From: an uncultured Bacteroidota bacterium
Lineage (GTDB): Bacteria > Bacteroidota > Bacteroidia > AKYH767-A > JABDAW01
Assembly: GCA_903844645.1 (NCBI GenBank)
Contig: CAIMUP010000013.1
Coordinates: 1,428-65,427, forward strand
Length of the DNA: 64,000 nt
Reading direction: 5' to 3'
Part shown: one piece after another, positions 1 to 62,242 of the stretch
Layout of the letters: every line of letters begins with the position of its first letter
How positions within the stretch are numbered: the stretch's first letter is position 1
Notes under the pieces: model-generated
What the model was told of the DNA's origin: nothing
The model's input: the letters and a program-made list of their open reading frames with translations, nothing else
The model's database searches: none
Program-made: the position numbers and the translations under genes

Positions 1-1791
1 CACTTGTTCGGTTTCTTCTCGATATTTAATTCCGATGCTATCAATTCCGTGGAATTAATCAAAGGCGGAATGCCTGCACAATATGGTGGTCGGCTTGCCT
101 CGGTCTTGGATATTTCGATGAAGGAAGGCAACAATCAATCCTTCCATGTGGATGGAGGCATCGGGGTGATTGCATCGCGCCTCACCATCCAGGGACCTAT
201 CGAAAAGAACAAATGTTCGTTCATTATTTCTGCAAGACGGACTTATATTGATGTGCTTGCCGCACCGTTCATCAGCAATTCCTCGCCGTTCAAGGGGAGC
301 GGGTATTTCTTCTATGATTTGAATGCCAAACTGAATTATCAATTCTCGGATAAGGATAAACTTTTCGTCAGTGGGTACTTTGGTCGCGATGTATTTTCTT
401 ATAAGAATTCCGACAATGGTTTCTCTGTAGATATTCCATGGGGCAACACCACCGTTTCGGCTCGTTGGAATCATTTATTCAGCAATAAAGTCTTTATGAA
501 TACCTCGCTGATCTATACCGATTATCAATTCCAATCCAGCTTTACGGAGAGCCAGTTCCAGTTCAGTTTATCTTCCGGCATCCGCGACTTTAATGCCAAG
601 TGGGACTTGAATTATTACCCTAACCTTCGTCATAATATTAAATTCGGAGCGATTTATACCTTCCATATCTTCACCCCGAGTACCATCTCTGGGCAGTCGG
701 GTTCGGTGGTGTTTAATCCTGGCAAACTGCACCTGTATGCCCAAGAGCCTGCCCTGTATGTCAGCGATGATTACGACCTTACTGATAGGATTAAAATTCA
801 TGCAGGCTTGCGGTATTCCGCTTTCCAGCAGATAGGTCCTTATAATTTCTTCCTCCATGATAAAAACGGCTCCATCACGGATACGATTCACTATGCCGAC
901 ATGGCTAACGTAGCTTTTTATCAAGGGTTGGAGCCGCGCGTTTCCATCCGATATTCCATCAATAAAAAGTCATCCCTCAAAGCGGGATATACGATTAACG
1001 ACCAGTACATGCACCTCGTGTCGCTGTCCACGGTTACGCTGCCCACCGATGTTTGGATGCCTACTTCGCAGAAAGTGAAGCCCGAAATCGGTACGCAATA
1101 TTCGATGGGTTACTTCCGAAATTTCAAAAAGGAAACGTACGAAACATCGGTCGAGGTGTATTACAAGGAGATGAAGCACATGATTGATTATGCCGATGGC
1201 TCGACCTACGGCGATAGCTATCAGGACAACTTCGACAAGTCGTTCGTATTTGGCAAAGGATGGTCGTATGGCGTGGAATTATTCATCAAGAAAGACCTCG
1301 GCAAACTGACGGGCTGGATCGGATATACCCTCTCCTATACCAACCGCAACTTCCCTGATAACAACGATTCGATGACCTTCCCCGCGAAGTACGATCGCCG
1401 CCACGATTTATCAGTCGTCGCGAACTATGTTTTCAATGATCATTGGACGTTCTCCAGCCAATTTGTATATGCTACTGGCGATGCGCTGACGGTCGAAACG
1501 GGGCGGTATTTCATCGAAAACCGGATCATGCCGGAATACGGCGCGAGGAATAATTACCGCCTCGACCCATACCATCGCGCCGATGTTTCGGCGACTTATA
1601 TCCGCAAAAAGCATGAGAAATACCAATCGTCCTGGACGTTCTCGATCTACAATGTGTACAACCGCCACAATCCGTATTTCATCTACCCCTCTACGTATGG
1701 CAGCACGGTGTTGAATAACCTGAAATTAACCGAAAAGGAGGTTTCCTTATTCCCGATTCTGCCTTCCGTCACCTGGAATTTTAAGTTTTAA
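1..1791 (+). CDS. TonB-dependent receptor, C-terminal part (5' end lies outside the window)
   Basis: The ORF is open to the window edge. It has a plug/barrel-type motif (SVELIKGGMPAQYGGR), a long alternating beta-strand pattern and a terminal aromatic ...TWNFKF typical of TBDR barrels. Confidence 0.85.
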   Translation, partial: HLFGFFSIFNSDAINSVELIKGGMPAQYGGRLASVLDISMKEGNNQSFHVDGGIGVIASRLTIQGPIEKNKCSFIISARRTYIDVLAAPFISNSSPFKGSGYFFYDLNAKLNYQFSDKDKLFVSGYFGRDVFSYKNSDNGFSVDIPWGNTTVSARWNHLFSNKVFMNTSLIYTDYQFQSSFTESQFQFSLSSGIRDFNAKWDLNYYPNLRHNIKFGAIYTFHIFTPSTISGQSGSVVFNPGKLHLYAQEPALYVSDDYDLTDRIKIHAGLRYSAFQQIGPYNFFLHDKNGSITDTIHYADMANVAFYQGLEPRVSIRYSINKKSSLKAGYTINDQYMHLVSLSTVTLPTDVWMPTSQKVKPEIGTQYSMGYFRNFKKETYETSVEVYYKEMKHMIDYADGSTYGDSYQDNFDKSFVFGKGWSYGVELFIKKDLGKLTGWIGYTLSYTNRNFPDNNDSMTFPAKYDRRHDLSVVANYVFNDHWTFSSQFVYATGDALTVETGRYFIENRIMPEYGARNNYRLDPYHRADVSATYIRKKHEKYQSSWTFSIYNVYNRHNPYFIYPSTYGSTVLNNLKLTEKEVSLFPILPSVTWNFKF

Positions 1792-1850
1792 TGATGGAAA
1801 GGGAGATTTTGAATCATAAAATGGAGTTCAATAAGGGAATTAGTGCCGCG

Positions 1851-2047
1851 CAAATGATTATTAGCGGAGCTCGAATAGGTATTAGAGGAGCTCAAATGGT
1901 TATTAGAGGAGCTCGAATAGGTATTAGAGGAGTTCGAATAGGTATTAGAGGAGTTCGAATAGGTATTAGAGGAGCTCTAATAGGTATTAGAGGAGCTCAA
2001 ATAGGTATTGGAAGAGCTCAAATAGGTATTAGAGGAGCTCAAATTCC
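1851..2047. repeat. Array A: 21-bp tandem repeat, about 9.4 copies
   Basis: The unit is cgaataggtattagaggagct. Unit starts were hand-indexed at 1851, 1872, 1893 ... 2019. It lies between the TBDR stop (1791) and the DUF4249 start (2078). Confidence 0.95.
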
Positions 2048-2077
2048 ATCAATTTGTATTAATAAATTAGCTGTATC

Positions 2078-2974
2078 ATGAAAAAACTACTCTTTCTCCT
2101 TGCCCTGATTCCATTCATCTTTATCGGTTGCGAGAAAGATATTGCCGTGAATTTCCCGCCGCCACCCGATTTATTGGTCATCGAAGGGCACATCGAGCCG
2201 GGCGGATTTGCCTACGTTCACGTTACGCGGAATGCCAATTATTTCGCCTCCACGAATACCGATTCGCTGTTGCAATACCTCGTTACGGATGCCATCGTGG
2301 TAGTTTCTGATGGGATATTAATGGATACTTTGAAACAGACATTCGCCCCGTATTTGGACCCTTATTTCCCTGCTCCGGTGATTTATCTGGGGCAATTAAT
2401 CATCGGGCAACCGAACCATACCTACACACTGAAAGTCATTGCCAACGGGCAAACAGTTACCGCCACGACCTCCATCCCCGGGCTTGTACCGCTCGATAGT
2501 ACCTGGTTTAAGGTGGAGAATAACCTCGACAGTTTGGGATATGTTTACGGACACATGCACGACCCCGATTCCTTGGGCAATGCCTACCGGTTTATGATCA
2601 AACGGATTGGGCATTTCTCCGATGGCAAGCAGAAGGATTTGGGATTTATTGCCGATGTGAATTCGGTATTTGATGATAAAGTAATTAATGGGCAGAGCTT
2701 TGATGGCGACTTCAACCGTCCACATCTGCCGCATGATACCTCGGTCGAGAATCACAATATCGAGAATGGATATTTCAAGAAAGGCGATACCATCGTCCTG
2801 AAATGGATGACCCTCGACCACGATCATTACAAGTTCTGGCAAACCGAAGGTATCGCCGCCAATGGCGCGGATAATCCCTTCGCCTCCCCGACCATTATCA
2901 AGAGTAATATCAAAGGCGGCTTAGGTATTTGGGGAGGCTATGGCACGACCTATGACACGATTATTGCGAAATAA
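2078..2974 (+). CDS. DUF4249-like lipoprotein, the usual partner of a Bacteroidota TonB-dependent receptor
   Basis: It has a lipoprotein signal (MKKLLFLLALIPFIFIGC). Its size and position directly after a TBDR fit the family. The family assignment is from memory, not a search. Confidence 0.6.
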   Translation: MKKLLFLLALIPFIFIGCEKDIAVNFPPPPDLLVIEGHIEPGGFAYVHVTRNANYFASTNTDSLLQYLVTDAIVVVSDGILMDTLKQTFAPYLDPYFPAPVIYLGQLIIGQPNHTYTLKVIANGQTVTATTSIPGLVPLDSTWFKVENNLDSLGYVYGHMHDPDSLGNAYRFMIKRIGHFSDGKQKDLGFIADVNSVFDDKVINGQSFDGDFNRPHLPHDTSVENHNIENGYFKKGDTIVLKWMTLDHDHYKFWQTEGIAANGADNPFASPTIIKSNIKGGLGIWGGYGTTYDTIIAK

Positions 2975-3919: not shown

Positions 3920-4042
3920 AAGGGGTAAAATAAATTTTGATTAGATAGCTCGCCTGCCGATCTCCTGAATGTTTTTTCTCATTACAAATTTCCTTTTCTT
4001 GTATTTTTTCGAGTTCCCCGAGGAATGAAATTTCTTTAATCG

Positions 4043-4345
4043 AGGCATTAGGAAAAAAAGCAGGGCATCAAATTACCCAATTTCATACCTTAAGTTTTTG
4101 CTCAAGGCATCACATTACCCGATGTGTGGGGTTGAGCAAAAACTTAATGCTTCACATCATCCAATTTGGAGGTATGGGAAAAAAAGTAATGCCCCACATT
4201 ACCCGATTTTGGGGTATGGCAAAAAACCTAATGCCCCACATTACCCAATGTGATGGTATGGCAAAAAACCTAATGCCCCACCTTACCCAATGCGGGGGTA
4301 TGAGCAAAAAAGTAGTGCCTCACATTACCTAATGTGGGGGTGTGA
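4043..4345. repeat. Array B: 42-bp tandem repeat, about 7 copies, each with an internal hairpin
   Basis: The unit is gccccacattacccaatgtgatggtatggcaaaaaacctaat. The anchor gc(a/c/t)(t/c)cac falls at 4065, 4107, 4149, 4191, 4233, 4275 and 4317, a spacing of exactly 42. Each unit contains the dyad cacatt-accc-aatgtg. Confidence 0.95.
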
Positions 4346-6058: not shown

Positions 6059-6066
6059 TAATTTTG
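6059..6066 (+). promoter_or_regulatory. candidate Bacteroidota-type -7 box (TAnnTTTG) for the decarboxylase gene
   Basis: The sequence taattttg lies 21 nt upstream of the ATG at 6087. Confidence 0.35.
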
Positions 6067-7671: not shown

Positions 7672-8652
7672 ATGAAAAACTCCCACCTACTCTTTTTCTT
7701 TTTTCTTTTTATAATCGGAAAGCCAATGATTGCGCAGAATCTTGTTCCGAACCCAAGTTTCGAGTTACATGATAGCTGCCCTGATAATGAAGACCAAATA
7801 CAAAGAGCAATAGGATGGTCTAAATACAGTAATATTGCTTCTACTCCTGATTATTATAATGCCTGTGATACTGGTGGACAGTTATGCGTGCCACCAGTTA
7901 ATGGGGGATTTACTCAATCATCAGCACATAGTGGTCATGCTTATGGAGCAGTTGTAACATTTGCTAAACAAATTCATAATTATCGTGAGTATATCGGTAT
8001 ACAATTATCTCAATCTTTAACTATTGGTCAGGATTATTTTCTCTCCTTTTATACAACCACTGGAGAAGTATGGGGTTTAGGAATGCCTTCAAATAATCTT
8101 GGTATTCGTTTATCAACTGTTGCTTTTAATCCAAATAATCCAACTCCAATTAATAATTATGCTCATTTATATTCTTCGGCAATTATTAGTGATACCATAA
8201 ACTGGGTACATGTTTCCGGAACAATAACAGCAGATTCGACTTATCATTATTTGGTAATTGGTAATTTCTTTACTGATAGCCTCACGGACACGATTTGCTG
8301 GCGACAGACAAATTCATTAGAATGTTATTATGCAGTTGACGATATTTGCATTACACCTGCTGCTGATTCAATGATATGTATGGAGTTCACTTCAGTTGAT
8401 GAAATAAAATTTCCCGAGGATATTAATGTATTTCCAAATCCGGCAACTGATTTTGTAAATATCGTTTTCGATGAAAATCAAGAAACGGAAATTATATTAT
8501 TTGATATGTTAGGGAATACGATTTACAAGAATCTAATTACAAATAAGAGCGCAAGATTATGTATATCTGCTATTCCGCGTGGATGTTATGAATTAAAAAT
8601 TACCAGCAAGAGAGATTATAAAACTTATATAAAAAAAATTGTTAAACTATAA
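7672..8652 (+). CDS. secreted protein with a T9SS type A C-terminal sorting domain
   Basis: It has a signal peptide, an N-terminal LVPNPSFE motif and a C-terminal VFPNPATDFVNIVF...YELKI block typical of Por/T9SS CTDs. Confidence 0.7.
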   Translation: MKNSHLLFFFFLFIIGKPMIAQNLVPNPSFELHDSCPDNEDQIQRAIGWSKYSNIASTPDYYNACDTGGQLCVPPVNGGFTQSSAHSGHAYGAVVTFAKQIHNYREYIGIQLSQSLTIGQDYFLSFYTTTGEVWGLGMPSNNLGIRLSTVAFNPNNPTPINNYAHLYSSAIISDTINWVHVSGTITADSTYHYLVIGNFFTDSLTDTICWRQTNSLECYYAVDDICITPAADSMICMEFTSVDEIKFPEDINVFPNPATDFVNIVFDENQETEIILFDMLGNTIYKNLITNKSARLCISAIPRGCYELKITSKRDYKTYIKKIVKL

Positions 8653-8718
8653 AAAAATAAAATGAAAAACTATTGCTTTCGGTTTAGGAAAAATGCAGGG
8701 CGGTTTAGCTTTTATATT

Positions 8719-8926
8719 GACCTGTTTAAAGTTTATGTCGGTCTGTTTAAAGTTTGTATCGGTCTGTTTAAAGTTTAAACAGGTCTGTTTAAAGTTTGTA
8801 TCGGTCTGTTTAAAGTTTAAACAGGTCTGTTTAAAGTTTAAACAGGTCTGTTTAAAGTTTGTATCGGTCTGTTTAAAGTTTAAACAGACCTGTTTAAAAT
8901 TTGTACAGACCTGTTTAAAAACTATA
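8719..8926. repeat. Array C: 21-bp tandem repeat, about 10 copies, two alternating variants
   Basis: The units are ggtctgtttaaagtttgtatc and ggtctgtttaaagtttaaaca, starting at 8719, 8740 ... 8908. Junctions of the b-type variant create the 9-bp inverted repeat tttaaacag-gt-ctgtttaaa. Confidence 0.95.
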
Positions 8927-15334: not shown

Positions 15335-15546
15335 GATGGTGGCAAAGAAAGGAAATTCGTGGGGCAGGGATGGAAAACTTTTTTTTCAGAGAATTGTATT
15401 TCTCCACTATTTTTAGTATCATTGCAACCTCGAACAAAAAATGAAGCCTCAAAACACATATAATAATCTCGCAAATCTCTCCAATAATTTTGGAGGTGGG
15501 GCTTGCATATTAAATAGAGTTTGTGTAAACTCGAAGCCGCCTCAAT

Positions 15547-15577
<31 letters not shown>

Positions 15578-15658
15578 CAAATTTTTTGAAATAACCAAAT
15601 CGGAGAACACTTTTTCTGGTTCGGTTCAAAAAATTTCGTTTTCCTTTTCTAATCTTTC

Positions 15659-15951
15659 ATTAAAGTTTCCAAAAATTTCCGCGATTTTTCAGGAATCTTG
15701 GTCAAGTCGCCAGAGTTTTGACCAAAGTTTCATACGCCCCAGCCAAAGTGTGCCGAACTTCAGCCAAAGTTTTGGAAACTTTGACCAAAGTCCAGCGACT
15801 TTGACCAAAGTAGATGAAGATTCGGTTGAGGTTTCTGAAACTTTGACCAAAGTGGGCTTCACCGTGGTCAAAGTTTCTGCTTTCTCGCCCAAAGTTTCCG
15901 GAAATTCCTCCAAAGTTTCCCAAAAATCCCCCAAAGTTTCTGAAACTTCGG
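15659..15951. repeat. Array D: degenerate 21-bp-phased array with conserved core CCAAAGT(TT)
   Basis: Core starts fall at 15722, 15743, 15764, 15785, 15805, 15847, 15868, 15889, 15910 and 15931, giving spacings of 21,21,21,20,42,21,21,21,21. The sequence between cores is variable. Confidence 0.85.
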
Positions 15952-16076
15952 GACCTGTAGGAAGAATATTGGCTGTAAATCAGTCCATTTCTTTCCTGAC
16001 TTCGATTTTCGAGGTCCTTTTACAAAATCCCGCTAACGGAATCCAAATAGAAATTTAATAACTTAATAAATAAACT

Positions 16077-28646: not shown

Positions 28647-28850
28647 TTCACCCTTTTGAGGGATTGTTTTAGGAACTAATACCTTGTAATTTTGCATCCT
28701 TAATTACAAACAATGGATCATTACAATCACATAGCGAATACAACGGATAGCAATCACGACAGAGGCAATGCTTCTGGAAGGTTTTTCAATGGTGGCGGTA
28801 GTGATATGGATACAAATTGTAGTTTAAACATATGCCAAAAAAACTCAAAC

Positions 28851-29102
28851 ATATCTTTTAGTAACAATAAGATACCTTTTAGTAACAATAAGATACCTTT
28901 TAGTAACAATAAGATACCTTTTAGTAACAATAAGATACCTTTTAGTAACATAAAGATATGTTTTAGTAACAAAAAGATACCTTTTAGTAACAAAAAGATA
29001 CCTTTTAGTAACAAAAAGATACCTTTTAGTAACAAAAAGATATGTTTTAGTAACAAAAAGATACCTTTTAGTAACAATAAGATATGTTTTAGTTTTTCTC
29101 AC
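28851..29102. repeat. Array E: 21-bp tandem repeat, about 12 copies
   Basis: The unit is ataccttttagtaacaataag, with variants atatg... and ...aaaaag. Starts fall at 28851, 28872 ... 29082. Confidence 0.95.
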
Positions 29103-29205
29103 CATAGTAAAAGCAATAGTTGCTATGGTGATGGGTCTTTTCAGAATGCCCACCCCTCTCCCTTGTATTCAAAACCAAGTAGTAACATAATAAAATAACA
29201 ATAAA

Positions 29206-32103: not shown

Positions 32104-34497
32104 TTATGCCTTATTCAAGGCAACGATAGCATCGTAGATGTCCTCGGTATTAGGCTTCGAGAAATAATCTCCATCAGAGCCGTAAGCAGGACGATGCGGG
32201 TGCGAAGTCATAGTTATTGGCGCAGCATCGAGGTAGCGATAACCATTCTGGAGTTCCAAAACTTGTTGCATCATATAAGCAGTGGCGCCACCAGGTACAT
32301 CTTCATCGAGAAAGAGAATCTTGTTCGTCTTTTTAAGGGAGTTCACAATGCTGCCGTGTATATCAAAAGGCAAAAGAGATTGTACATCTATCAGTTCGCA
32401 GGAGATATTGGCTTGTTGCAGTTGCTTCACGGCATCTTGTGCAATGCGACACATCGAACCATAAGTAACTATGGTAATATCACTACCCTCGCAAAGGATT
32501 TCAGGAACACCTATCGGGACTTTATAATCACCAAGATTGCTTGGAAGTTTCTCCTTCAAACGATAGCCATTTAATGGCTCGATAATAAGGCACGCATCGT
32601 CAGAAGCAAGCATGGTATTGTAGAAACCAGCAGCTTGCGTCATGTTGCGAGGCACTAAAATATAGATGCCACGCAGTGCATTAATAATCATACCCATTGG
32701 GGAGCCGGAATGCCATATCCCTTCCAGCCGATGACCTCTTGTTCTGATGATAACAGGTGCTTTCTGACCACCTTTGGTACGGTATTGCAGCGTGGCGAGA
32801 TCATCGCTAAGGATTTGTATTGCGTAAAGCAAATAATCAAGATACTGTATCTCGGCAATAGGTCTCAAACCCCGCATGGCAAGCCCTATTCCCTGCCCTG
32901 CAATAGTCGCTTCACGAATGCCGGTATCGGTAACTCGTATCTCGCCATATTTTTCTTGCATACCAGCAAATCCTTGGTTCACATCGCCTATCTTTCCGAG
33001 GTCTTCACCAAATGCAAGGACGAGCGGATTGTTCTTAAAGATAACATCGAAGTTGGCTTGCAGAATTTCACGACCATCCATCATTGGGGCATCATCGTTA
33101 TAGGTAGCCTTCACTTCTTTAATGTTTAATGCAGCATCTTTTGATTGGCTATGAAGATAGGAATTGTATCTATCGGAGTTCTGTTCTTTGGCTTTGTTAT
33201 TCCATTTTGTTAAAGCATCTTTTGCAACACTGTTTTCATTCTCTATTAATCTCAAAACCTTCTTTACAGAGGACATTACTTCTCTCCGAGATGGATCAAT
33301 GAAGGTGGTGAGTTCATTCTTTATCTTATTAATGAAAGCCGCATTGATACTGGCTTTCGCAATGTCATCAAAGAGAGAACTTATCTCTGCTATCTCTGCT
33401 TTTATGGGATTATTAAAGTCTTCCCAAGCCTTCTTTTTGCATTCTAAGACATACCTCTTTGCATCATATTCTATAGTATGTAATTCTTCTTCTGTAGCGA
33501 TGGTATTTGCGAGTATCCATTCCTTAAACTTCTTGATGCAATCGAAATCTTCTTCCCATGTAAGCCTGTCTTTTCCTTTATATCTTTCATGAGAGCCTGA
33601 TGTCGAATGCCCCTGTGGCTGTGTCATCTCTTGCACATGGAAGATGGCAGGGATATGTTGCTCCCGACAGATGGCAATACCCTTCTCATACATCTCGCAG
33701 AGTGCTGCATAGTCCCAACCTTTGCAGGTGTAGATGTAATATCCATCCTTATCATCGGTCTTTTCAAAGCCTTTGAGGACTTCTGATATACTGTCTTTCG
33801 TGGTTTGATATTTACGCGAAACAGAGATACCATAACCGTCATCCCAAATAGAAATAGCCATCGGAACTTGCAACACTCCGGCTGCATTAATGGTTTCATA
33901 AAAGATTCCTTCACTCGTGCTGGCATCTCCTATGGTGCCAAAAGCAACTTCATTTCCATCAATAGAAAAGTCGGTATAAGGTTTTAATTCAGGATTGTTT
34001 CGATAGATCTTTGAGGCATACGCAAGCCCTAATAATCGTGGCATCTGGGAGCCTGTGGGAGATATATCGGCAGAGGAATTCTTCATCGCAGTCAATTGTT
34101 TCCAGCTTCCATCAGAGTTTAATGACCTCGTTCCGAAGTGTCCATTCATGCTTCTGCCTGCTGATGCCGGCTCCAATTCTACTGAAGGATTGGCATATAA
34201 TTGTGCAAAGAATTCGGTGATGGAATACTGCTTGATGGCGAACATAAAGGTCTGGTCGCGGTAATATCCCGAACGAAAGTCGCCATCCTTGAAAGCCTTT
34301 GCCATCGCGACTTGTGCCAACTCTTTTCCATCGCCAAAGATGCCGAACTTAGCCTTGCCGGTAAGCACTTCTTTTCTTCCCAAGAGGCTTGCTTGCCGGC
34401 TTTCATTCACTAATTTATAATCCTCTAAAACGGTCTTCTTAAATTCGTCGAACGACAGATCTTTGGTCGCCTCTTTTACTTTATTTTCCTTAGCCAT
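32104..34497 (-). CDS. 2-oxoacid dehydrogenase E1 component, fused alpha and beta subunits
   Basis: This 797-aa protein has a ThDP-binding alpha-like N-terminal half and a transketolase-like beta C-terminal half. Confidence 0.85.
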   Translation of the reverse strand: MAKENKVKEATKDLSFDEFKKTVLEDYKLVNESRQASLLGRKEVLTGKAKFGIFGDGKELAQVAMAKAFKDGDFRSGYYRDQTFMFAIKQYSITEFFAQLYANPSVELEPASAGRSMNGHFGTRSLNSDGSWKQLTAMKNSSADISPTGSQMPRLLGLAYASKIYRNNPELKPYTDFSIDGNEVAFGTIGDASTSEGIFYETINAAGVLQVPMAISIWDDGYGISVSRKYQTTKDSISEVLKGFEKTDDKDGYYIYTCKGWDYAALCEMYEKGIAICREQHIPAIFHVQEMTQPQGHSTSGSHERYKGKDRLTWEEDFDCIKKFKEWILANTIATEEELHTIEYDAKRYVLECKKKAWEDFNNPIKAEIAEISSLFDDIAKASINAAFINKIKNELTTFIDPSRREVMSSVKKVLRLIENENSVAKDALTKWNNKAKEQNSDRYNSYLHSQSKDAALNIKEVKATYNDDAPMMDGREILQANFDVIFKNNPLVLAFGEDLGKIGDVNQGFAGMQEKYGEIRVTDTGIREATIAGQGIGLAMRGLRPIAEIQYLDYLLYAIQILSDDLATLQYRTKGGQKAPVIIRTRGHRLEGIWHSGSPMGMIINALRGIYILVPRNMTQAAGFYNTMLASDDACLIIEPLNGYRLKEKLPSNLGDYKVPIGVPEILCEGSDITIVTYGSMCRIAQDAVKQLQQANISCELIDVQSLLPFDIHGSIVNSLKKTNKILFLDEDVPGGATAYMMQQVLELQNGYRYLDAAPITMTSHPHRPAYGSDGDYFSKPNTEDIYDAIVALNKA

Positions 34498-34682: not shown

Positions 34683-34864
34683 GTACACGTGTACAATTCG
34701 TCCTGCAACTGTGTCGGAGGCAATGTTCGGTGTACTTTGCCCCAACACAGTTGTGTTTGCCAATTCTACATGTGTACTATTGGCAAACACAGTTACTTTT
34801 GCAGAAGTACACGTGTAGAATTGGCAAACACAACTGTGTTTGCCAAATGTACACGTGTACATTC
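34683..34864. repeat. Array F: roughly 42-bp tandem repeat, about 4.3 copies, built from two alternating palindromes
   Basis: It alternates GTACACGTGTAC (12-bp palindrome at 34683, 34807, 34849; degenerate at 34725, 34766) with AATTGGCAAACACA-ACTGTGTTTGCCAAAT (30-bp palindrome). The dyad centres are 21 bp apart. Confidence 0.9.
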
Positions 34865-35323: not shown

Positions 35324-37846
35324 ATGAATAAAAACCTCAAAAACCAACTGATAAAACACGCATTAGTAGTTATGGGATTCATCGCCATAACGATGATTTA
35401 CTTCTCCCCATTGATGGAGAACAAAGAACTGAAACAAGGCGATATAGACCACTGGTATGGCGGCGCAAAAGAGATTCTCGATTTCCGCAAAACACACAAT
35501 GCAGAAGCCCTCTGGACGAACTCCATGTTCGGCGGAATGCCAGCCTATCAAATCTCGGTGCTGTATCCCTCAAACCTGATACAGTATGTGAATAAAGCAC
35601 TGACTTTCGGCATCCCGAACCCCGCAAATTATATGTTTTTATACTTCCTCGGCTTCTATCTTTTGCTCTTGGTCATGAAGATAGATTGGCGGCTTGCGGC
35701 ATTAGGAGCTATTGCGTTTGGGCTGTCGTCTTATCTAATAATCATCATCGAAGCAGGGCATAATACCAAGGCAGAGGCAGTAGGATATATGGCTCCCGTA
35801 CTGGCAGGCATCATCCTGACCTATCGCGGAAGATTCCTGATAGGCGGGGCATTAACAGCATTGGCGATGGCGTTGGAAATTAATTCAAACCATCCGCAAG
35901 TAACGTATTATTTGTTCATGATTATCGGATTGATGCTCGCCGTACAACTTTATACCACCTGGAAAGAGAAGGCATGGAAAACTTTTATCACTGCATCAGG
36001 AATTGTAGGCGTGGTAACGGTATTGGCAGTGCTGACCAGCATCACAAGCCTCTGGGCAACGGCAGATTATGGCAAATATTCCACCCGTGGACAGAGCGAG
36101 TTGGCAGCTAAGAAATCATCTACTGGATTGGATAGGGATTATGTCTTCGGATGGAGCTACGGTAATGCCGAAGCATGGACGTTGTTGGTATCTAATTTCA
36201 AGGGTGGAAGCAGTTCCTGGCCCCTCGGTAAAGATGAAAGTACGTTAGAGAAAGTAAGTCCTAATTACCGTCAAAACATTGCGCAATTCCCTTCTTACTG
36301 GGGCGATCAGCAGTTCACCTCCGGTCCGGTGTATGTCGGGGCGATCATTTGTTTTCTGTTCTTCTTAGGATTATTAATAGTGGATGGGAATGACAGGTGG
36401 TGGTTGCTCGGAGCGACTATCCTTTCTATCGTATTGGCATGGGGAAAGAATTTTCCGGCATTTAATTATTGGATGTTCGATCACTTTCCGGCATACAACA
36501 AGTTCCGTTCGGTAACCATAGCATTAATCATTGCCGAGTTTGCGATGCCGATATTGGCTATCCTCGCATTAAATAAAATACTTAATACCCCGAAATTATT
36601 AGAGACAAAACGTAAGCAATTATTCATCGGGATGGGCGTGGCATTGGGGATAACCATTCTCATCGCCGTATCGCCAACCATGTTTGGGGATGTATATAAA
36701 GCCAACGAATACGAACAACTGAAAGGCGAGATTAAAAAACAAGGAGCGAACGATACCCAAGCCGTCGAGTTCTTGGATAATATCGAGATTGCGCGTAAGG
36801 CGGTGCTGTCTGCCGATGCGTGGAGGAGTTTTATATTTATTGCCCTGGCATGCGGGATGATATATGCCTTTACCCGATTCAAATTCAAGAAAGAATACCT
36901 GATAGTGGGCGTAGGATTATTGATAGTTGTAGATTTATGGGCGGTAGATAAACGGTATTTGAATGATAAGGATTTCGTGGAGGTGAAACATGCCGGAGTG
37001 CCGTACGAACCGCATAAGGTGGATCAGGAAATCCTGAAAGATCCTTCGCCGAATTATAGGGTGATGAACTTGCAAGACCCCTTCAACGATGCCCGAACGA
37101 GCTACTTCCATAAATCTATCGGGGGGTATCACGGAGCTAAATTGAAGCGCATCAAAGAACTCATTGATTACCGCCTCGACCCGGAAGTACAGATGATAAT
37201 AGCCTCCTTCAAATCGAAAGATCCGGCAACGATTGACAGAGCTATCGCGAGTGCCACGTGCATCAATATGCTGAATGGAAAATATATTATCTATAGCCAG
37301 GATGCCCCGCCGTTGCCGAATCAACATGCGTTGGGGAATTGCTGGTTTGTGAAGAACTTCAAGATGGTTGCCAATGCCGATTCAGAGATTAATGCTATGG
37401 GGACTTTCGACCCTGCTACATCTGCCGTGGTTGATCATCGGTTCATGCCTTTGGTGGAGGCAATTCATCCTATGTTTGATTCCACGGCGACCATTAAATT
37501 AACCAGCTATCAACCCAATGATTTGAATTATGAATCTAAAGCATCCACAGAGCAACTCGCCGTCTTCTCCGAGATATACTTCGATGGGGGCTGGAATGCT
37601 TATATTGACGGGAAGCTGACCCCTTACTTCCGCACCGATTATTTATTGCGGGGCATGAGTGTTCCGGCAGGGTCGCATAAGATAGAATTCAAGTTTGAGC
37701 CGACACTTTATTCCACTGGGGAACATATTTCCTTGGTCAGTTCCTTGCTATTATTAATCCTGGTGGGCGGGGTTTCCTTCAAATTCATCAAAGAAAAATT
37801 GGCAGAACCAGAGCCGCAATCACAGCCCAAGGCGATGAAGAAATAG
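35324..37846 (+). CDS. large polytopic membrane protein (YfhO-like, tentative)
   Basis: This 840-aa protein has many TM segments in the N-terminal two thirds and a soluble C-terminal domain with a final TM. Confidence 0.65.
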   Translation: MNKNLKNQLIKHALVVMGFIAITMIYFSPLMENKELKQGDIDHWYGGAKEILDFRKTHNAEALWTNSMFGGMPAYQISVLYPSNLIQYVNKALTFGIPNPANYMFLYFLGFYLLLLVMKIDWRLAALGAIAFGLSSYLIIIIEAGHNTKAEAVGYMAPVLAGIILTYRGRFLIGGALTALAMALEINSNHPQVTYYLFMIIGLMLAVQLYTTWKEKAWKTFITASGIVGVVTVLAVLTSITSLWATADYGKYSTRGQSELAAKKSSTGLDRDYVFGWSYGNAEAWTLLVSNFKGGSSSWPLGKDESTLEKVSPNYRQNIAQFPSYWGDQQFTSGPVYVGAIICFLFFLGLLIVDGNDRWWLLGATILSIVLAWGKNFPAFNYWMFDHFPAYNKFRSVTIALIIAEFAMPILAILALNKILNTPKLLETKRKQLFIGMGVALGITILIAVSPTMFGDVYKANEYEQLKGEIKKQGANDTQAVEFLDNIEIARKAVLSADAWRSFIFIALACGMIYAFTRFKFKKEYLIVGVGLLIVVDLWAVDKRYLNDKDFVEVKHAGVPYEPHKVDQEILKDPSPNYRVMNLQDPFNDARTSYFHKSIGGYHGAKLKRIKELIDYRLDPEVQMIIASFKSKDPATIDRAIASATCINMLNGKYIIYSQDAPPLPNQHALGNCWFVKNFKMVANADSEINAMGTFDPATSAVVDHRFMPLVEAIHPMFDSTATIKLTSYQPNDLNYESKASTEQLAVFSEIYFDGGWNAYIDGKLTPYFRTDYLLRGMSVPAGSHKIEFKFEPTLYSTGEHISLVSSLLLLILVGGVSFKFIKEKLAEPEPQSQPKAMKK

Positions 37847-37950: not shown

Positions 37951-38202
37951 ATGAATATCTTTTGCTTCGGGATGAATATCCTTTGCTTCGGGATGAATAT
38001 CCTTTGCTTCGGGATGAATATCCTTTGCTTCGGGGTGAATATCTTTTGCTTCGGGGTGAATATCTTTTGCTTCGGGATGAATATCCTTTGCTTCGGGATG
38101 AATATCCTTTGCTTCGGGATGAATATCTTTTGCTTCGGGATGAATATCTTTTGCATCGGGATGAATATCTTTTCATCCGGCTTCAATACATTTTCATCCC
38201 GG
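37951..38202. repeat. Array G: 21-bp tandem repeat, 12 copies
   Basis: The unit is atgaatatcctttgcttcggg. Starts fall at 37951, 37972 ... 38182. It lies between the terminator at 37870-37908 and the ppiC-type gene at 38399. Confidence 0.95.
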
Positions 38203-38358
38203 GTTAATGTCTTACATGAACTTTTCCCCGTTATAAAACCCGATTTGGAGGGGTAAAAAGGGAGGTTTTTGGAAATTCTCCACCCTCCATTTCCCACTTT
38301 TAAGTCTCCATTCCCCATTTTCCATTCCCCATTCTTTTTCCATTGTCAGGAAATTTTA

Positions 38359-41251: not shown

Positions 41252-41277
41252 TAAAATGGACAAAAAGATGCTTTTTC

Positions 41278-41445
41278 TATTAAATACGACTACAATGATG
41301 CCGTCATCTCCTACAATGATAGCGTCATCTACTACAATTATGCCGTCATCTACTACAATTATGCCGTCATCTACTACAATGATGGCGTCATCTACTACAA
41401 TTATGCCGTCATCTACTACAATGATGGCAACTTCGACTACACATT
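41278..41445. repeat. Array H: 21-bp tandem repeat, 8 copies
   Basis: The unit is tgccgtcatctactacaatta. Starts fall at 41278, 41299 ... 41425. The array ends 15 bp before the surA-like ATG (41460). Confidence 0.95.
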
Positions 41446-41459
41446 TATTACATTAATTC

Positions 41460-43868: not shown

Positions 43869-44162
43869 CGGCTGTTGATTGGAGAAAGTCGGCTGTTGAT
43901 TGGGGAAAGTTGACTGTTGATTGGGGAAAGTCGGCTGTTGATTGGGGAAAGTCGGCTGTTGATTGGGGAAAGTTGACTGTTGATTGGGGAAAGTCGGCTG
44001 TTGATTGGGGAAAGTCGGCTGTTGATTGGGGAAACATGGACGTAGATTGGGGAAACATGGACGTAGATTGCGGAAACATGGACGTAGATTGGGGAAACAT
44101 GGAGGTAGATTGTAGAAACATGGAGGTAGATTGCAGAAACATGGAGGTAGATGGGTTTTACA
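43869..44162. repeat. Array I: 21-bp tandem repeat, 14 copies in two subfamilies
   Basis: It has 8 units of (c/t)g(g/a)ctgttgattggggaaagt, arranged cgg,cgg,tga in a 63-bp higher order. Six units of tgga(c/g)gtagattgnngaaaca follow. Starts fall at 43869 ... 44142. Confidence 0.95.
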
Positions 44163-49926: not shown

Positions 49927-50162
49927 CCGACCGGATTTGGGAAAGATGCGGTCGGATATTTCCTTTCTCCGGTCGGATATTTCTTTTTTCCGGTCGGATA
50001 TTTCTTTTTTCCGGTCGGATATTTCTTTTTTCCGGTCGGATATTTCTTTTTTCCGGTCGGATATTTCCTTTTTCCGGTCGGAGATTTCTTTTTTCCGGTC
50101 GGAGATTTCCTGTTTCCGGTCGGAGATTTCCTTTTTCCGGTCGGATATTTCCCGTTACCGAC
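49927..50162. repeat. Array J: 21-bp tandem repeat, about 11 copies
   Basis: The unit is ccggtcggatatttctttttt. The anchor ggtcgga falls at 49950, 49971, 49992 ... 50139. It lies between dgkA and the alpha-oxoamine synthase gene. Confidence 0.95.
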
Positions 50163-50299: not shown

Positions 50300-51691
<1,392 letters not shown>

Positions 51692-51721
51692 ATCCCAAAT
51701 AACCTTAATAATGATATAATT

Positions 51722-52849
51722 ATGGAAATAACAATCAAAAAAGTCGAAAACGGAGCCGATAAGAAGAAGTTTATTGACTTCGTTCATGATTTATATGCCG
51801 ATGATCCGAACTATGTGCCTGAACTTTACATGGCGCAAAGCGATTTGATGAATCCTAAGAAGAATCCTTTCTTTTGGCATTCCAAGGCGGATCTTTTTCT
51901 TGCTGAACGCGATGGAAAAGTGGTAGGAAGAATCGCCGCCATAAGGAATAATAATTATAATGAATACGCGAAAACCAAAGTCGGCTTCTTCGGGTTCTTC
52001 GATGTTATAAATGATTATGAAGTGGCTAAGAAATTACTCGATACCGCTAACGATTGGATTAAAAAGGAAGGCTTGACGGACATTATAGGACCTACAAATT
52101 TCTCTACCAATGAAACTTGCGGCTTATTAGTAGAAGGTTTGGATTCTGCGCCTGTAATTATGATGACTTATAACAAGGCTTATTACAAAACCTTCTTAGA
52201 TAAATATGGTTTTACTAAGCAAATGGACCTGATTGCATACGTCCTGGACCCGATGGATATGCCGGAAAAGCTATTGCGATTAGCAAAAGGGATTGAGGAG
52301 CGTTTGAAGAGAAGAAACATTACCGTCCGCAAGATAAATATGAAGGATTTTAACAACGAAGTAGCCAAAGTAAAGGAAATTTATAATGCTGCCTGGGATA
52401 AAAATTGGGGTTTTGTGCCGATGACGGATGACGAATTCAAATTCCAGGCTAAGGATATGAAAATGATATTAGATAAAGACTTCGCGTATGTAGCCGAAGA
52501 CAACGGAAAGGTCATCGCGTTCTCATTAACTATTCCGAATGTGAACGAGGTGTTCAAAACCATCAAGCGGGGCAGGTTATTCCCGACGGGGCTGTTAAAA
52601 TTAGTATTAAATAAGAGCAAAATATCCAGCGTACGTGTGATTACATTGGGGGTGTTGGAGGAATATCGGAAGCTGGGTATAGACGTCGTGTTTTATGCTA
52701 AGAACATGGAAACCGCCCAACAGAAAAAACTTAAATATGCAGAGGCTTCCTGGATTTTAGAGAACAATAAGGAGATGAATTCTCCCTTAATTTCCATCAA
52801 TGCGAAGCCTTATAAAACATATCGTATCTTTGAGAAGAAGATAGTATGA
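51722..52849 (+). CDS. GNAT-like acyl-CoA N-acyltransferase superfamily protein (tentative)
   Basis: This 375-aa protein has an N-terminal region (…LAERDGKVVGRIAA…GFFGFFD) that resembles acyltransferase folds. Its stop overlaps the next start (ATGA). Confidence 0.55.
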   Translation: MEITIKKVENGADKKKFIDFVHDLYADDPNYVPELYMAQSDLMNPKKNPFFWHSKADLFLAERDGKVVGRIAAIRNNNYNEYAKTKVGFFGFFDVINDYEVAKKLLDTANDWIKKEGLTDIIGPTNFSTNETCGLLVEGLDSAPVIMMTYNKAYYKTFLDKYGFTKQMDLIAYVLDPMDMPEKLLRLAKGIEERLKRRNITVRKINMKDFNNEVAKVKEIYNAAWDKNWGFVPMTDDEFKFQAKDMKMILDKDFAYVAEDNGKVIAFSLTIPNVNEVFKTIKRGRLFPTGLLKLVLNKSKISSVRVITLGVLEEYRKLGIDVVFYAKNMETAQQKKLKYAEASWILENNKEMNSPLISINAKPYKTYRIFEKKIV

Positions 52850-54368: not shown

Positions 54369-54558
54369 CCGTCATCATATATGAAAACGGACAATCGTAA
54401 TAGTTATTATTGTATTAACTATTGTAATTATTGCTTTAGCAATAGTAAATATGACCATAACGATACCTTGGGCGATATTTTCTATCGTTACTGCAATAAT
54501 AACATATGTAAAAGGTATCCTTAGGATACCAATTATACGTTTTCATATATGATGACGG
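54369..54558. repeat. perfect 21-nt inverted repeat pair flanking 148 bp
   Basis: The sequence ccgtcatcatatatgaaaacg (54369-54389) has its exact reverse complement cgttttcatatatgatgacgg at 54538-54558. Confidence 0.9.
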
Positions 54559-54579
54559 ACGAAAAGGATAGTAAAAGCT

Positions 54580-54748
54580 GTTATCACGATAGTTATTGTT
54601 GTTATCACAATGGTAAAAGCGGTTATCACAATAGTTATTGCTGTTATCACAATAGTTATTGTAGTTATCACAATAGTTATTGCAGCTATTACAATTGTAA
54701 AAGCAGTTATTATAATAGCTATAACAGTATTCACGATAGCGATGACAA
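54580..54748. repeat. Array L: 21-bp tandem repeat, 8 copies
   Basis: The unit is gttatcacaatagttattgct. Starts fall at 54580, 54601 ... 54727. Related, degenerate reverse-orientation copies lie at about 54390-54450. Confidence 0.85.
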
Positions 54749-57781: not shown

Positions 57782-58026
57782 ATAATTTGGGGCGAAATTA
57801 GTATAATTAAGGATAATAATATGATGAAGTATTTGATAAAAATAAGGATGACAAAAGGAATGCTACACGACAAATTATTTTTTCATAAACTTCAGATTCA
57901 TCTACTAAATGACTACAATTTTTATCTAATAATTTGGAGAATTAATGCCTGCAAAACGGAACAAATTAAGAGCATAAAAATGTGGCTTCTTTGGAATAAA
58001 ATTCTGAATAAGAGGGATTCCGACTC

Positions 58027-58152
58027 GGCTGCGAATGATTTCGTCGTGACTGCGACTATTTTCATCATGACTGCGACCATTTCCGACTAGATTGCGACTA
58101 TTTTCATCGTGACTGCGACCATTTCCGACTAGATTGCGACCATTTTCATCGG
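58027..58152. repeat. Array M: 21-bp tandem repeat, 6 copies with a 42-bp higher order
   Basis: The units gactgcgaccatttccgacta and gattgcgactattttcatcgt alternate. Starts fall at 58027 (degenerate), 58048, 58069, 58090, 58111 and 58132. Confidence 0.9.
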
Positions 58153-61929: not shown

Positions 61930-62242
61930 CCAAAAGTCGAGATATTGAAACAATGAATCGTACCCATTAACCACTTAATTGAAGTGAAAGACTATTTTAG
62001 TATAATGAATGACTCATTAAGTATAATGAAAGACTATTTTAGTATAATGAATGACTAAAACACTAATATGAAAGACTAATTACCAGACATGAAAGACCAC
62101 TTCATGTCTGGCAATTAGTCTTTCATATTAGTGAATTAGTCTTTTACCTTAATAAAGTAGTTAATCATTATACTAAAATAGTCTTTCACTTCAATTAAGT
62201 GGTTAATGGGTACGATTCATTGTTTCAAGGTCTCGACTTGGA
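61930..62242. repeat. Element N: roughly 313-bp nested imperfect palindrome built from the GAAAGAC motif on a 21/42-bp lattice
   Basis: The outer arms match over about 65 bp perfectly (61945-62009 vs 62165-62229), with imperfect extension to 61930 and 62242. The inner 33-bp stem (62061-62094 / 62101-62133) has one mismatch. GAAAGAC starts at 61986, 62028, 62070 and 62091, and GTCTTT(C/T) starts at 62118, 62139 and 62181. Confidence 0.9.

Follow-up and report, generated by a model that had tools for sequence, protein, structure and literature searches.

MIRUs, or mycobacterial interspersed repetitive units, are tandem repeats located in the spacers of operons, and in the passages of PMC12548453 that cite Supply et al. 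1997 they are described as containing an internal open reading frame (ORF) that is coupled to a flanking gene at a spacing of -4, an arrangement thought to minimise the cost of insertion. The MIRU-bearing spacer between rnc and fpg1, for example, measures 358 bp in M. tuberculosis and 6-20 bp in other mycobacteria (PMC2734929). Here we describe a 21-bp tandem array that occupies the gap between a TonB-dependent receptor gene and a DUF4249 lipoprotein gene of an uncultured Bacteroidia lineage, in a stretch of 64,000 nucleotides from contig CAIMUP010000013.1 that we refer to as the window. We propose that this array lies inside a small ORF (sORF) that is translated as a relay between the two cistrons of a single mRNA, and on the comparisons presented below we assign this reading a probability of about 0.6.

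The resemblance to MIRUs is one of layout. In both cases tandem repeats lie in an operon spacer and contain an ORF that is coupled at either end to the neighbouring gene, strains differ in the number of copies, and the spacer is only a few bp long in relatives that lack the repeats, with 358 versus 6-20 bp in mycobacteria and 286 versus about 4 nt here (PMC12548453, PMC2734929). The differences concern the repeat and its host. MIRUs have units of 40-100 bp and form one dispersed family with a shared consensus that is thought to be mobile, whereas the junction unit is 21 bp long, is specific to its locus, has no dispersed copies in 64 kb and has been replaced between lineages. In addition, one ORF spans the whole array, in a lineage without Shine-Dalgarno initiation. 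By analogy, the junction array is one that appears to work like a MIRU while standing outside the MIRU family.

Three other described arrangements bear comparison with this locus. The overlap motifs at the two ends of the sORF are those of the trpE-trpD and trpB-trpA couplings (ATGA and TAATG), for which termination-reinitiation has been proposed (PMC12548453). Unlike the trp genes, the present locus, which is known from sequence, would have two couplings in series, connected by a filler ORF of roughly 95 codons whose sequence is free to vary. Short upstream ORFs that deliver ribosomes also conserve their position and openness rather than their peptide, and end at the start of the gene they serve (PMC12548453); the sORF differs from them in being intercistronic instead of part of a 5' leader, in being unusually long and in being built of a variable minisatellite. 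Finally, the in-frame coding variable-number tandem repeats of bacterial surface proteins share with our array a period that is a multiple of 3, so that changes in copy number keep the frame. In surface proteins, however, the repeats form domains of a functional protein and their peptides are conserved, whereas here the peptide is unconserved and the 21-bp period is also found in gaps that cannot be translated.

Geometry of the receptor-lipoprotein junction

The window edge truncates the receptor gene, leaving its 3' part (4..1791, + strand) with a match to PF25183; the Pfam search of the receptor protein matched OMP_b-brl_4 with E 1.5e-10, and a full-length copy of 788 aa from other assemblies consists of CarboxypepD_reg and Plug domains. 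The downstream gene (2078..2974, + strand) encodes a DUF4249 lipoprotein of 298 aa with a signal peptide, the lipobox FIGC and a match to PF14054 (E 3e-26). The identity of the pair is thus confirmed both by Pfam domains and by adjacency on the same strand. The receptor ends with TAA at 1789-1791, and the gap of 286 nt between this stop and the lipoprotein start (1792-2077) is bridged by the sORF (1791..2081, + strand). The ATG of the sORF at 1791-1793 uses the last A of the receptor stop (TAATG), and its TGA at 2079-2081 lies within the ATGA of the DUF4249 start at 2078. The product is 96 aa long when read from this ATG and 95 aa when read from a second in-frame ATG at 1794, the start that relatives share. 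This frame stays open between 1785 and the TGA and is the sole stop-free frame of the six across the gap.

Within the gap, Tandem Repeats Finder reports 8.9 copies of a 21-bp unit, consensus TATTAGAGGAGCTCAAATAGG, at 1859..2044 on the + strand (period 21, matches 90%, score 288), which read as IRGA(Q/R)IG heptads in the sORF frame. Two decayed copies can be recognised by their similarity to the unit at the 5' edge of the array (1816..1858, + strand). The copy at 1838 matches at 13/21 positions in register, with a chance of about 0.0006, and the one at about 1816 matches at 14/21 with a 1-nt shift; with these copies included, the array totals roughly 9-11 units. On its 3' side the sORF continues through an AT-rich non-repeat flank (2045..2077, + strand), which is also the leader of the DUF4249 gene and is stop-free in the sORF frame only. 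The initial annotation, made from the window sequence, had placed the array within the receptor-lipoprotein pair and had given an ORF of 96 aa with TAATG and ATGA at its ends, and these coordinates hold. Its estimate of 9.4 copies falls within our range, and the gap that it gave as 287 bp measures 286 nt. It had also counted about 30 stop-free non-repeat codons; these are indeed open, but about 14 of them are decayed repeat copies and about 19 are truly non-repeat.

This geometry suggests a simple scheme. Ribosomes that end the receptor at TAA 1789-1791 would restart at the adjoining ATG, at 1791 or 1794, would translate about 95 codons including the 7-codon repeats, would stop at TGA 2079-2081 on the lipoprotein ATG (ATGA), and would restart there. 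Since the unit is exactly 7 codons long, slippage would alter the number of copies without breaking the frame, and selection would purge those units or flank mutations that put stops in it. The peptide itself is probably unimportant. What would be kept is the ribosome traffic over the spacer, which may maintain the coupling of translation, prevent folding of the start region or guard against transcriptional polarity.

The same junction in related lineages

It had been stated at the outset that receptor and DUF4249-type genes are normally adjacent, and relatives without the array bear this out. The gap measures 4, 4, 13 and 5 nt in four distant relatives (L005, L006, L007 and L050; DUF4249 identity 30-45%), and among the matches listed it ranges from -13 to +13 nt in 11 of the 14 background loci whose upstream ORF is long. 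This background set consists of the matches listed in a metagenome scan made with the DUF4249 alignment, all of them at ≤45% identity. The usual array-less junction consists of the stop, 4 nt and ATGAAAAA. Closer homologues of the DUF4249 protein are 76, 72, 71 and about 60% identical to it. The lineage with 76% identity (P0003) has a gap of 66 nt at the junction, and a 21-bp array is found there in five lineages, namely the window (100%) and all four further lineages whose DNA was obtained, L010 (72%), L054 (71%), L013 (60%) and L057 (60%).

The arrays of these five lineages are built from different units. To the window unit given above correspond GTTCATGGCACCAATTTTTCC in L010 and L011, GAATGTGCCATCCGTCCCACG in L054 and L055, GCCGCAAGTTGCGGCTGCATA in L013 and GTCATGACTGGAACCATAGAA in L057. 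In their best rotation the relatives' units match that of the window at 7-8/21 positions, below the background mean of 9.3. Descent of these syntenic arrays from a shared ancestral unit was considered and cannot be shown, because the similarity of the units is no better than that of random pairs.

Despite this turnover of units, the layout of the junction is the same throughout. In 5/5 lineages the receptor stop is followed within 2-4 nt by an ATG whose frame remains open across the array and its 5' and 3' flanks, and the stop that closes this frame overlaps the lipoprotein ATG or lies 0-7 nt from it. The ATG is 4 nt past the TAA in L010 (sORF 7989..8297), where the far end forms an ATGA overlap with the lipoprotein start, and 3 nt past the TAA in L054 (1195..1371), where a TAG abuts the lipoprotein ATG (TAGATG). 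In L013 (9739..9993) and L057 (9703..9996) the ATG is 4 nt past the receptor stop, and the sORF stop precedes the lipoprotein ATG by 7 and 4 nt, respectively. The window and its four relatives therefore all display the geometry of translational coupling, with the genes on one strand and with stop and start overlapping or a few nt apart at both junctions. The first codons of the sORFs are also alike (ATG GAA AGG GAG ATT, ATG AAA AGG GAA ATT, ATG GAA ACG ATG ATT, ATG GAA ATG ATG ATT and ATG AAA GAT TTC), and beyond about 18 nt the flanks are unalignable between lineages.

The position of the sORF start is that of the DUF4249 start in array-less relatives. In one of these, L007, the 13-nt spacer forms a 5-codon mini-ORF, ATGATTATCAGAAAATGA (3943-3961), that begins with TAATG and ends with ATGA. 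The shared position and the geometry of this mini-ORF suggest that the array may have grown just downstream of the ancestral lipoprotein start, with a new start kept at its far end.

Copy number also differs within lineages. One assembly of the window's junction carries 4 additional units, the order of the units differs in L002, the arrays of L010 and L011 are 2 units apart and those of L054 and L055 are 1 unit apart, all of these numbers being uncertain because arrays may be collapsed when short reads are assembled and are frequent sites of contig breakage. The alleles of the sORF differ in length by whole units, with 96 versus 124 aa, 102 versus 88 aa and 58 versus 51 aa. Contigs L002, L003, L004, L012, L056 and L052 end inside or beside arrays, and in L001 a run of N lies within the array of the receptor-DUF4249 gap. 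Genomes of this clade will be fragmented at arrays.

Is the frame held open by selection?

A priori, a long ORF across such a gap might be incidental. Any 21-bp unit that lacks a stop in one frame will produce one, and the terminal ATGA follows automatically when the downstream gene begins with MKK. In that case the array would be a non-coding minisatellite that is tolerated in the spacer, and the lipoprotein would be initiated independently on its AT-rich leader. The distribution of stops in the five lineages argues against this explanation. In the non-repeat flanks there are 0 stops in the sORF frame, 24 and 17 in the other two sense frames and 26 in the 15 antisense frames, which amounts to 67 in the 25 frames other than that of the sORF. 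Inside the arrays, stops are likewise missing from the sORF frame in 5/5 lineages, and the other frames are open in 8/25 cases. When the flanks were shuffled, the probability of obtaining a stop-free pair of flanks was 0.056, 0.055, 0.087, 0.058 and 0.022 for the individual lineages, and the product of these values is 10^-6.5 if the lineages are independent. Thus one and the same frame, set by its ATG, is free of stops in five lineages with unrelated units and unalignable flanks, and it always terminates ≤7 nt from the next ATG. With the flanks unalignable and the arrays replaced, one would not expect a frame free of selection to have persisted. We conclude from this comparison that the sORF frame is probably held open by selection, and the simplest reason would be that ribosomes read it.

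A number of observations weigh against the relay and must be set beside these results. Because the five lineages are related, the true significance lies below that given by the product of the shuffling probabilities. Antisense frames are long and open as well, fully in L054, over 289/309 nt in L010 and over 237 nt in both L013 and L057. When all arrays of the window flanked by co-directional genes are taken together, an open frame is as frequent in sense as in antisense (about 12/24 each). The same kind of array is present where translation cannot be the point, for example in the convergent gap at 54399-54722; the array at 43869-44152 has an open sense frame that lacks a start codon, and the arrays at 61985-62200 have no open frame. 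The variant sites among the window's own units are all non-synonymous, and between lineages the conservation of the peptide stops after its first five residues, so that there is no coding signature at the protein level. The exact 96-aa product is absent from a collection of 15 billion proteins, and gene callers are inconsistent over the junction gap. Lastly, Bacteroidota do not rely on Shine-Dalgarno-based initiation, and start sites are therefore not judgeable from sequence.

Several of these points, namely the open antisense frames of some relatives and the unconserved peptide, also favour the incidental explanation, as do two further results. The arrays of the window have between 0 and 6 open frames with no strand bias, and the open spans that extend beyond them average about 57 nt in sense and about 60 nt in antisense, similar to the lengths of the junction flanks. 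On this wider context alone, a long ORF over a 21-bp array is unremarkable. The lack of bias between the strands indicates that translation is not a general property of these arrays. Bridging ORFs are, however, found at tight junctions, and the arrays in long gaps (8711, 37951, 43869, 49949 and 58018) have none, so that translation would be a property of arrays at operon junctions rather than of arrays generally. Weighing both sides, we regard a purely incidental ORF as unlikely.

The product of the small ORF

The five sORF products measure 95 (window), 102 (L010), 58 (L054), 84 (L013) and 97 aa (L057), and their alignment reveals only the N-terminal M[EK]x[EM]I in common. The repeat heptads IRGAQIG, APIFPFM, ECAIRPT, AGSCGCI and EVMTGTI show no relation to one another, some being basic and others acidic or strongly hydrophobic. 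A Pfam search of the sORF product gave no match, and neither a conserved peptide nor the hydrophobic pattern at positions a and d that is expected of coiled-coil heptads was found in the five products. A single-sequence AlphaFold2 model of the window's product is one long helix (pLDDT 87.5, pTM 0.45), which we discarded as uninformative for a repeat sequence modelled without an alignment.

These data bear on the possibility that the sORF encodes a functional micro-protein, a hypervariable heptad peptide (here basic, IRGARIG) that would act with the receptor-lipoprotein pair and whose repeat would be under diversifying rather than purifying selection. The retention of the ORF in five lineages, its conserved N-terminus and the modelled helix are in keeping with such a role. 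However, from one lineage to the next the repeat peptides are wholly different in charge and hydrophobicity, no Pfam domain was matched, the lengths extend from 51 to 124 aa, the pTM is just 0.45 and models of repeats commonly come out as single long helices. Moreover, the same layout is encountered at unrelated gene pairs (see below). For these reasons we consider a functional micro-protein quite unlikely. An open frame that is conserved without a conserved peptide instead fits an ORF through which ribosomes pass. The initial annotation had proposed that the array is translated or at least co-transcribed, with coupling at its start and stop, and perhaps as a basic heptad micro-protein. The first part gains support from the frame itself, since the orthologous arrays, each with a different unit, were checked for stops in the sORF frame and none was found in the five lineages. 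The micro-protein version, in the sense of a conserved protein, is unsupported, as each lineage has a repeat peptide of its own that is unrelated to the others.

Transcription and RNA structure in the gap

In motif scans, the -7 box of Bacteroidetes promoters (TAnnTTTG) was absent from the gap in 5/5 lineages and no terminator-like hairpin was found there. This box is present 25-40 nt upstream of many genes in the window, for instance at 6059, 7640, 23837/23847, 30738, 38359, 46396 and 48604. The lack of both motifs, as judged from these scans, fits co-transcription of the two genes on a single mRNA. One weak sigma-70-like hit at 1795-1822 was discounted, since Bacteroidota use a different consensus. 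Some caution about excluding an internal promoter is nevertheless in order, because the MIRU-bearing spacer of senX3-regX3 has promoter activity (PMC4213456).

Structural searches gave a similar picture. Rfam at gathering thresholds had 0 matches in the whole window, and a search for tRNA and tmRNA genes found none. The sense RNA of the gap folds with z -1.7 relative to shuffled sequences and has no defined structure; the antisense fold reaches z -3.9, which derives from GAGCUC palindromes, and has an ensemble frequency of 0. With these values, we do not claim the gap as a structured RNA.

It might still be supposed that the array acts at the level of DNA or RNA, as phased bent DNA, a protein-binding array, an internal promoter or a structured RNA that sets the ratio of receptor to lipoprotein, with the ORF being secondary. 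The constancy of the 21-bp period (2 x 10.5 bp) over unrelated units and in all kinds of gap points to a non-coding constraint of this sort, and the senX3-regX3 spacer provides a precedent for promoter activity. Against it stand the absence of a -7 box from the five gaps, the weakness of a sole promoter match to a consensus that the phylum does not use, the lack of an Rfam match and the poorly defined sense fold, and it leaves the stop-free frame unexplained. We therefore judge an element of this kind to be very unlikely as the primary explanation. For the relay, we infer the translation of the frame, the reinitiation and the selective reason from the comparative evidence.

Further 21-bp arrays in the window and the clade

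The window contains at least 12 further arrays with a period of 21 bp or of its multiples 42 and 63. All are intergenic, and their units are mutually unrelated. They begin at 8711, 28847, 37951, 41289, 43869, 49949, 51563, 54399/54568, 58018 and 61985/62116, with extents of 8711-8919, 28847-29093, 37951-38213, 41289-41426, 43869-44152, 49949-50152, 51563-51690, 54399-54722 and 58018-58151, and amount to a density of about one array per 5 kb. A dispersed element with MITE- or MIRU-like mobility was considered as their source and rejected, as no copies of a unit were found outside its own array in 64 kb. The genes between which the arrays lie are those of an ordinary chromosome, including gyrA, efp, ffh, ribBA, SurA-like isomerases, MoxR and cargo of type IX secretion. 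The closest GyrA matches all stem from metagenome-assembled genomes labelled Bacteroidia or Bacteroidota, the nearest being 77% identical. The source species is absent from the scan of GTDB representatives, in which the best DUF4249 match is 45% identical.

Arrays of 21 bp are also found in relatives with a DUF4249 identity of ≥60% or a GyrA identity of 77% (L010, L013, L048, L051, L054 and L057). None was found in L049 and L050 (GyrA 74% and 71%), nor in 395 kb of more distant relatives among the matches listed. At some intergenic sites, both upstream of the receptor operon and downstream of MoxR, arrays recur across lineages with unrelated units (L001 2222-2544, L013 6858-7092 and L057 7008-7200; window 43869-44152 versus L051 6919-7190). 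A literature search on intergenic 21-bp arrays in Bacteroidota and Flavobacteria found nothing.

Two more tight co-directional junctions of the window have the layout of the receptor-DUF4249 junction, each with an ATG 4 nt past the upstream stop. The first sORF (41256..41456, sense; MDKKMLFLL...) spans the array at 41289-41426 between a gene of 281 aa and a SurA-like gene, and its TAA lies 3 nt before the next ATG. In a relative with 71% identity, an ORF of 66 aa is called in the gap that matches 41256-41456, and relatives with 82% and 69% identity are array-less there. The second (51549..51719, sense) spans the array at 51563-51690 and stops 2 nt before the next ATG. At this site (region 51521-51721) an aminotransferase-like gene (50300..51544), the array and a GNAT-like gene (51722..52849) share one frame with a single TAA, at 51542-51544, between them. 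This TAA occupies the 'A' position of a heptad (AGDDDNL*GNDDAI AGNDDAN AGKDDNY...), which implies that the array begins within the last codons of the aminotransferase-like gene; the region might represent a fusion, either broken or read through, in which the repeat serves as linker. A third ORF (28713..29198, 161 aa; region 28687-29198) spans the array at 28847-29093 with about 80 stop-free non-repeat codons. It has a -7-like box, TAATTTTG, 26 nt upstream and stops 8 nt before the next gene (29206), and may be an array-bearing leader ORF.

Several other repeats were observed. Between ribBA and a SPOR-domain gene, a large imperfect palindrome at 61934-62239 has arms of 125 nt each (61934-62058 and 62115-62239; 86% complementary) that are made of 21-bp units and contain no open frame. 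In the gap where trxB and an SSF transporter gene converge (4111-4341), a 42-bp unit is repeated 5.5 times, each copy with an 8-bp hairpin (CCCACATT...AATGTGGG) and one copy resembling a terminator. A run of (AC)14 at 15547-15574 may be prone to slippage; it lies in or beside ORF 15441..16058, for which Pfam gave no match. Finally, 2.8 copies of a 41-bp unit with internal palindromes at 34744-34861 lie in the gap upstream of the divergent genes 32104..34497 (- strand) and 35324..37846 (+ strand).

Implications

A broader proposal may be framed around the arrays as a whole, and we put it forward as a speculation that is probably too bold yet deserves serious consideration. In this Bacteroidia lineage a genome-wide process might seed and turn over arrays with a fixed period of 21 bp, a length that corresponds both to 7 codons and to two turns of the DNA helix, at gene boundaries, with positions conserved between species and units replaced. 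Arrays that arise at operon junctions would be kept as relay ORFs, and their copy number could tune the downstream gene. Were this so, the MIRU principle would have been invented a second time, independently and with a different mechanism, and the arrays would add a new type to the satellite DNA of bacteria.

If the relay is real, it would mean that a hypervariable minisatellite can sit within an operon without uncoupling its genes, provided that one frame remains open. Repeats tolerated in operons in this manner have so far been described essentially only for the mycobacterial MIRUs, and the relay would occur in a phylum whose translation initiation does without Shine-Dalgarno sequences and for which coupling may be of greater importance. 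For annotation, the consequence is that such sORFs are called or missed at random and that assemblies break at the arrays. Clade-wide, locus-specific arrays of 21 bp that number dozens per 100 kb, with conserved positions and variable sequences, and that are absent from relatives at about 70-74% GyrA identity, are also a tractable system in which to ask how the period of a bacterial satellite is determined.

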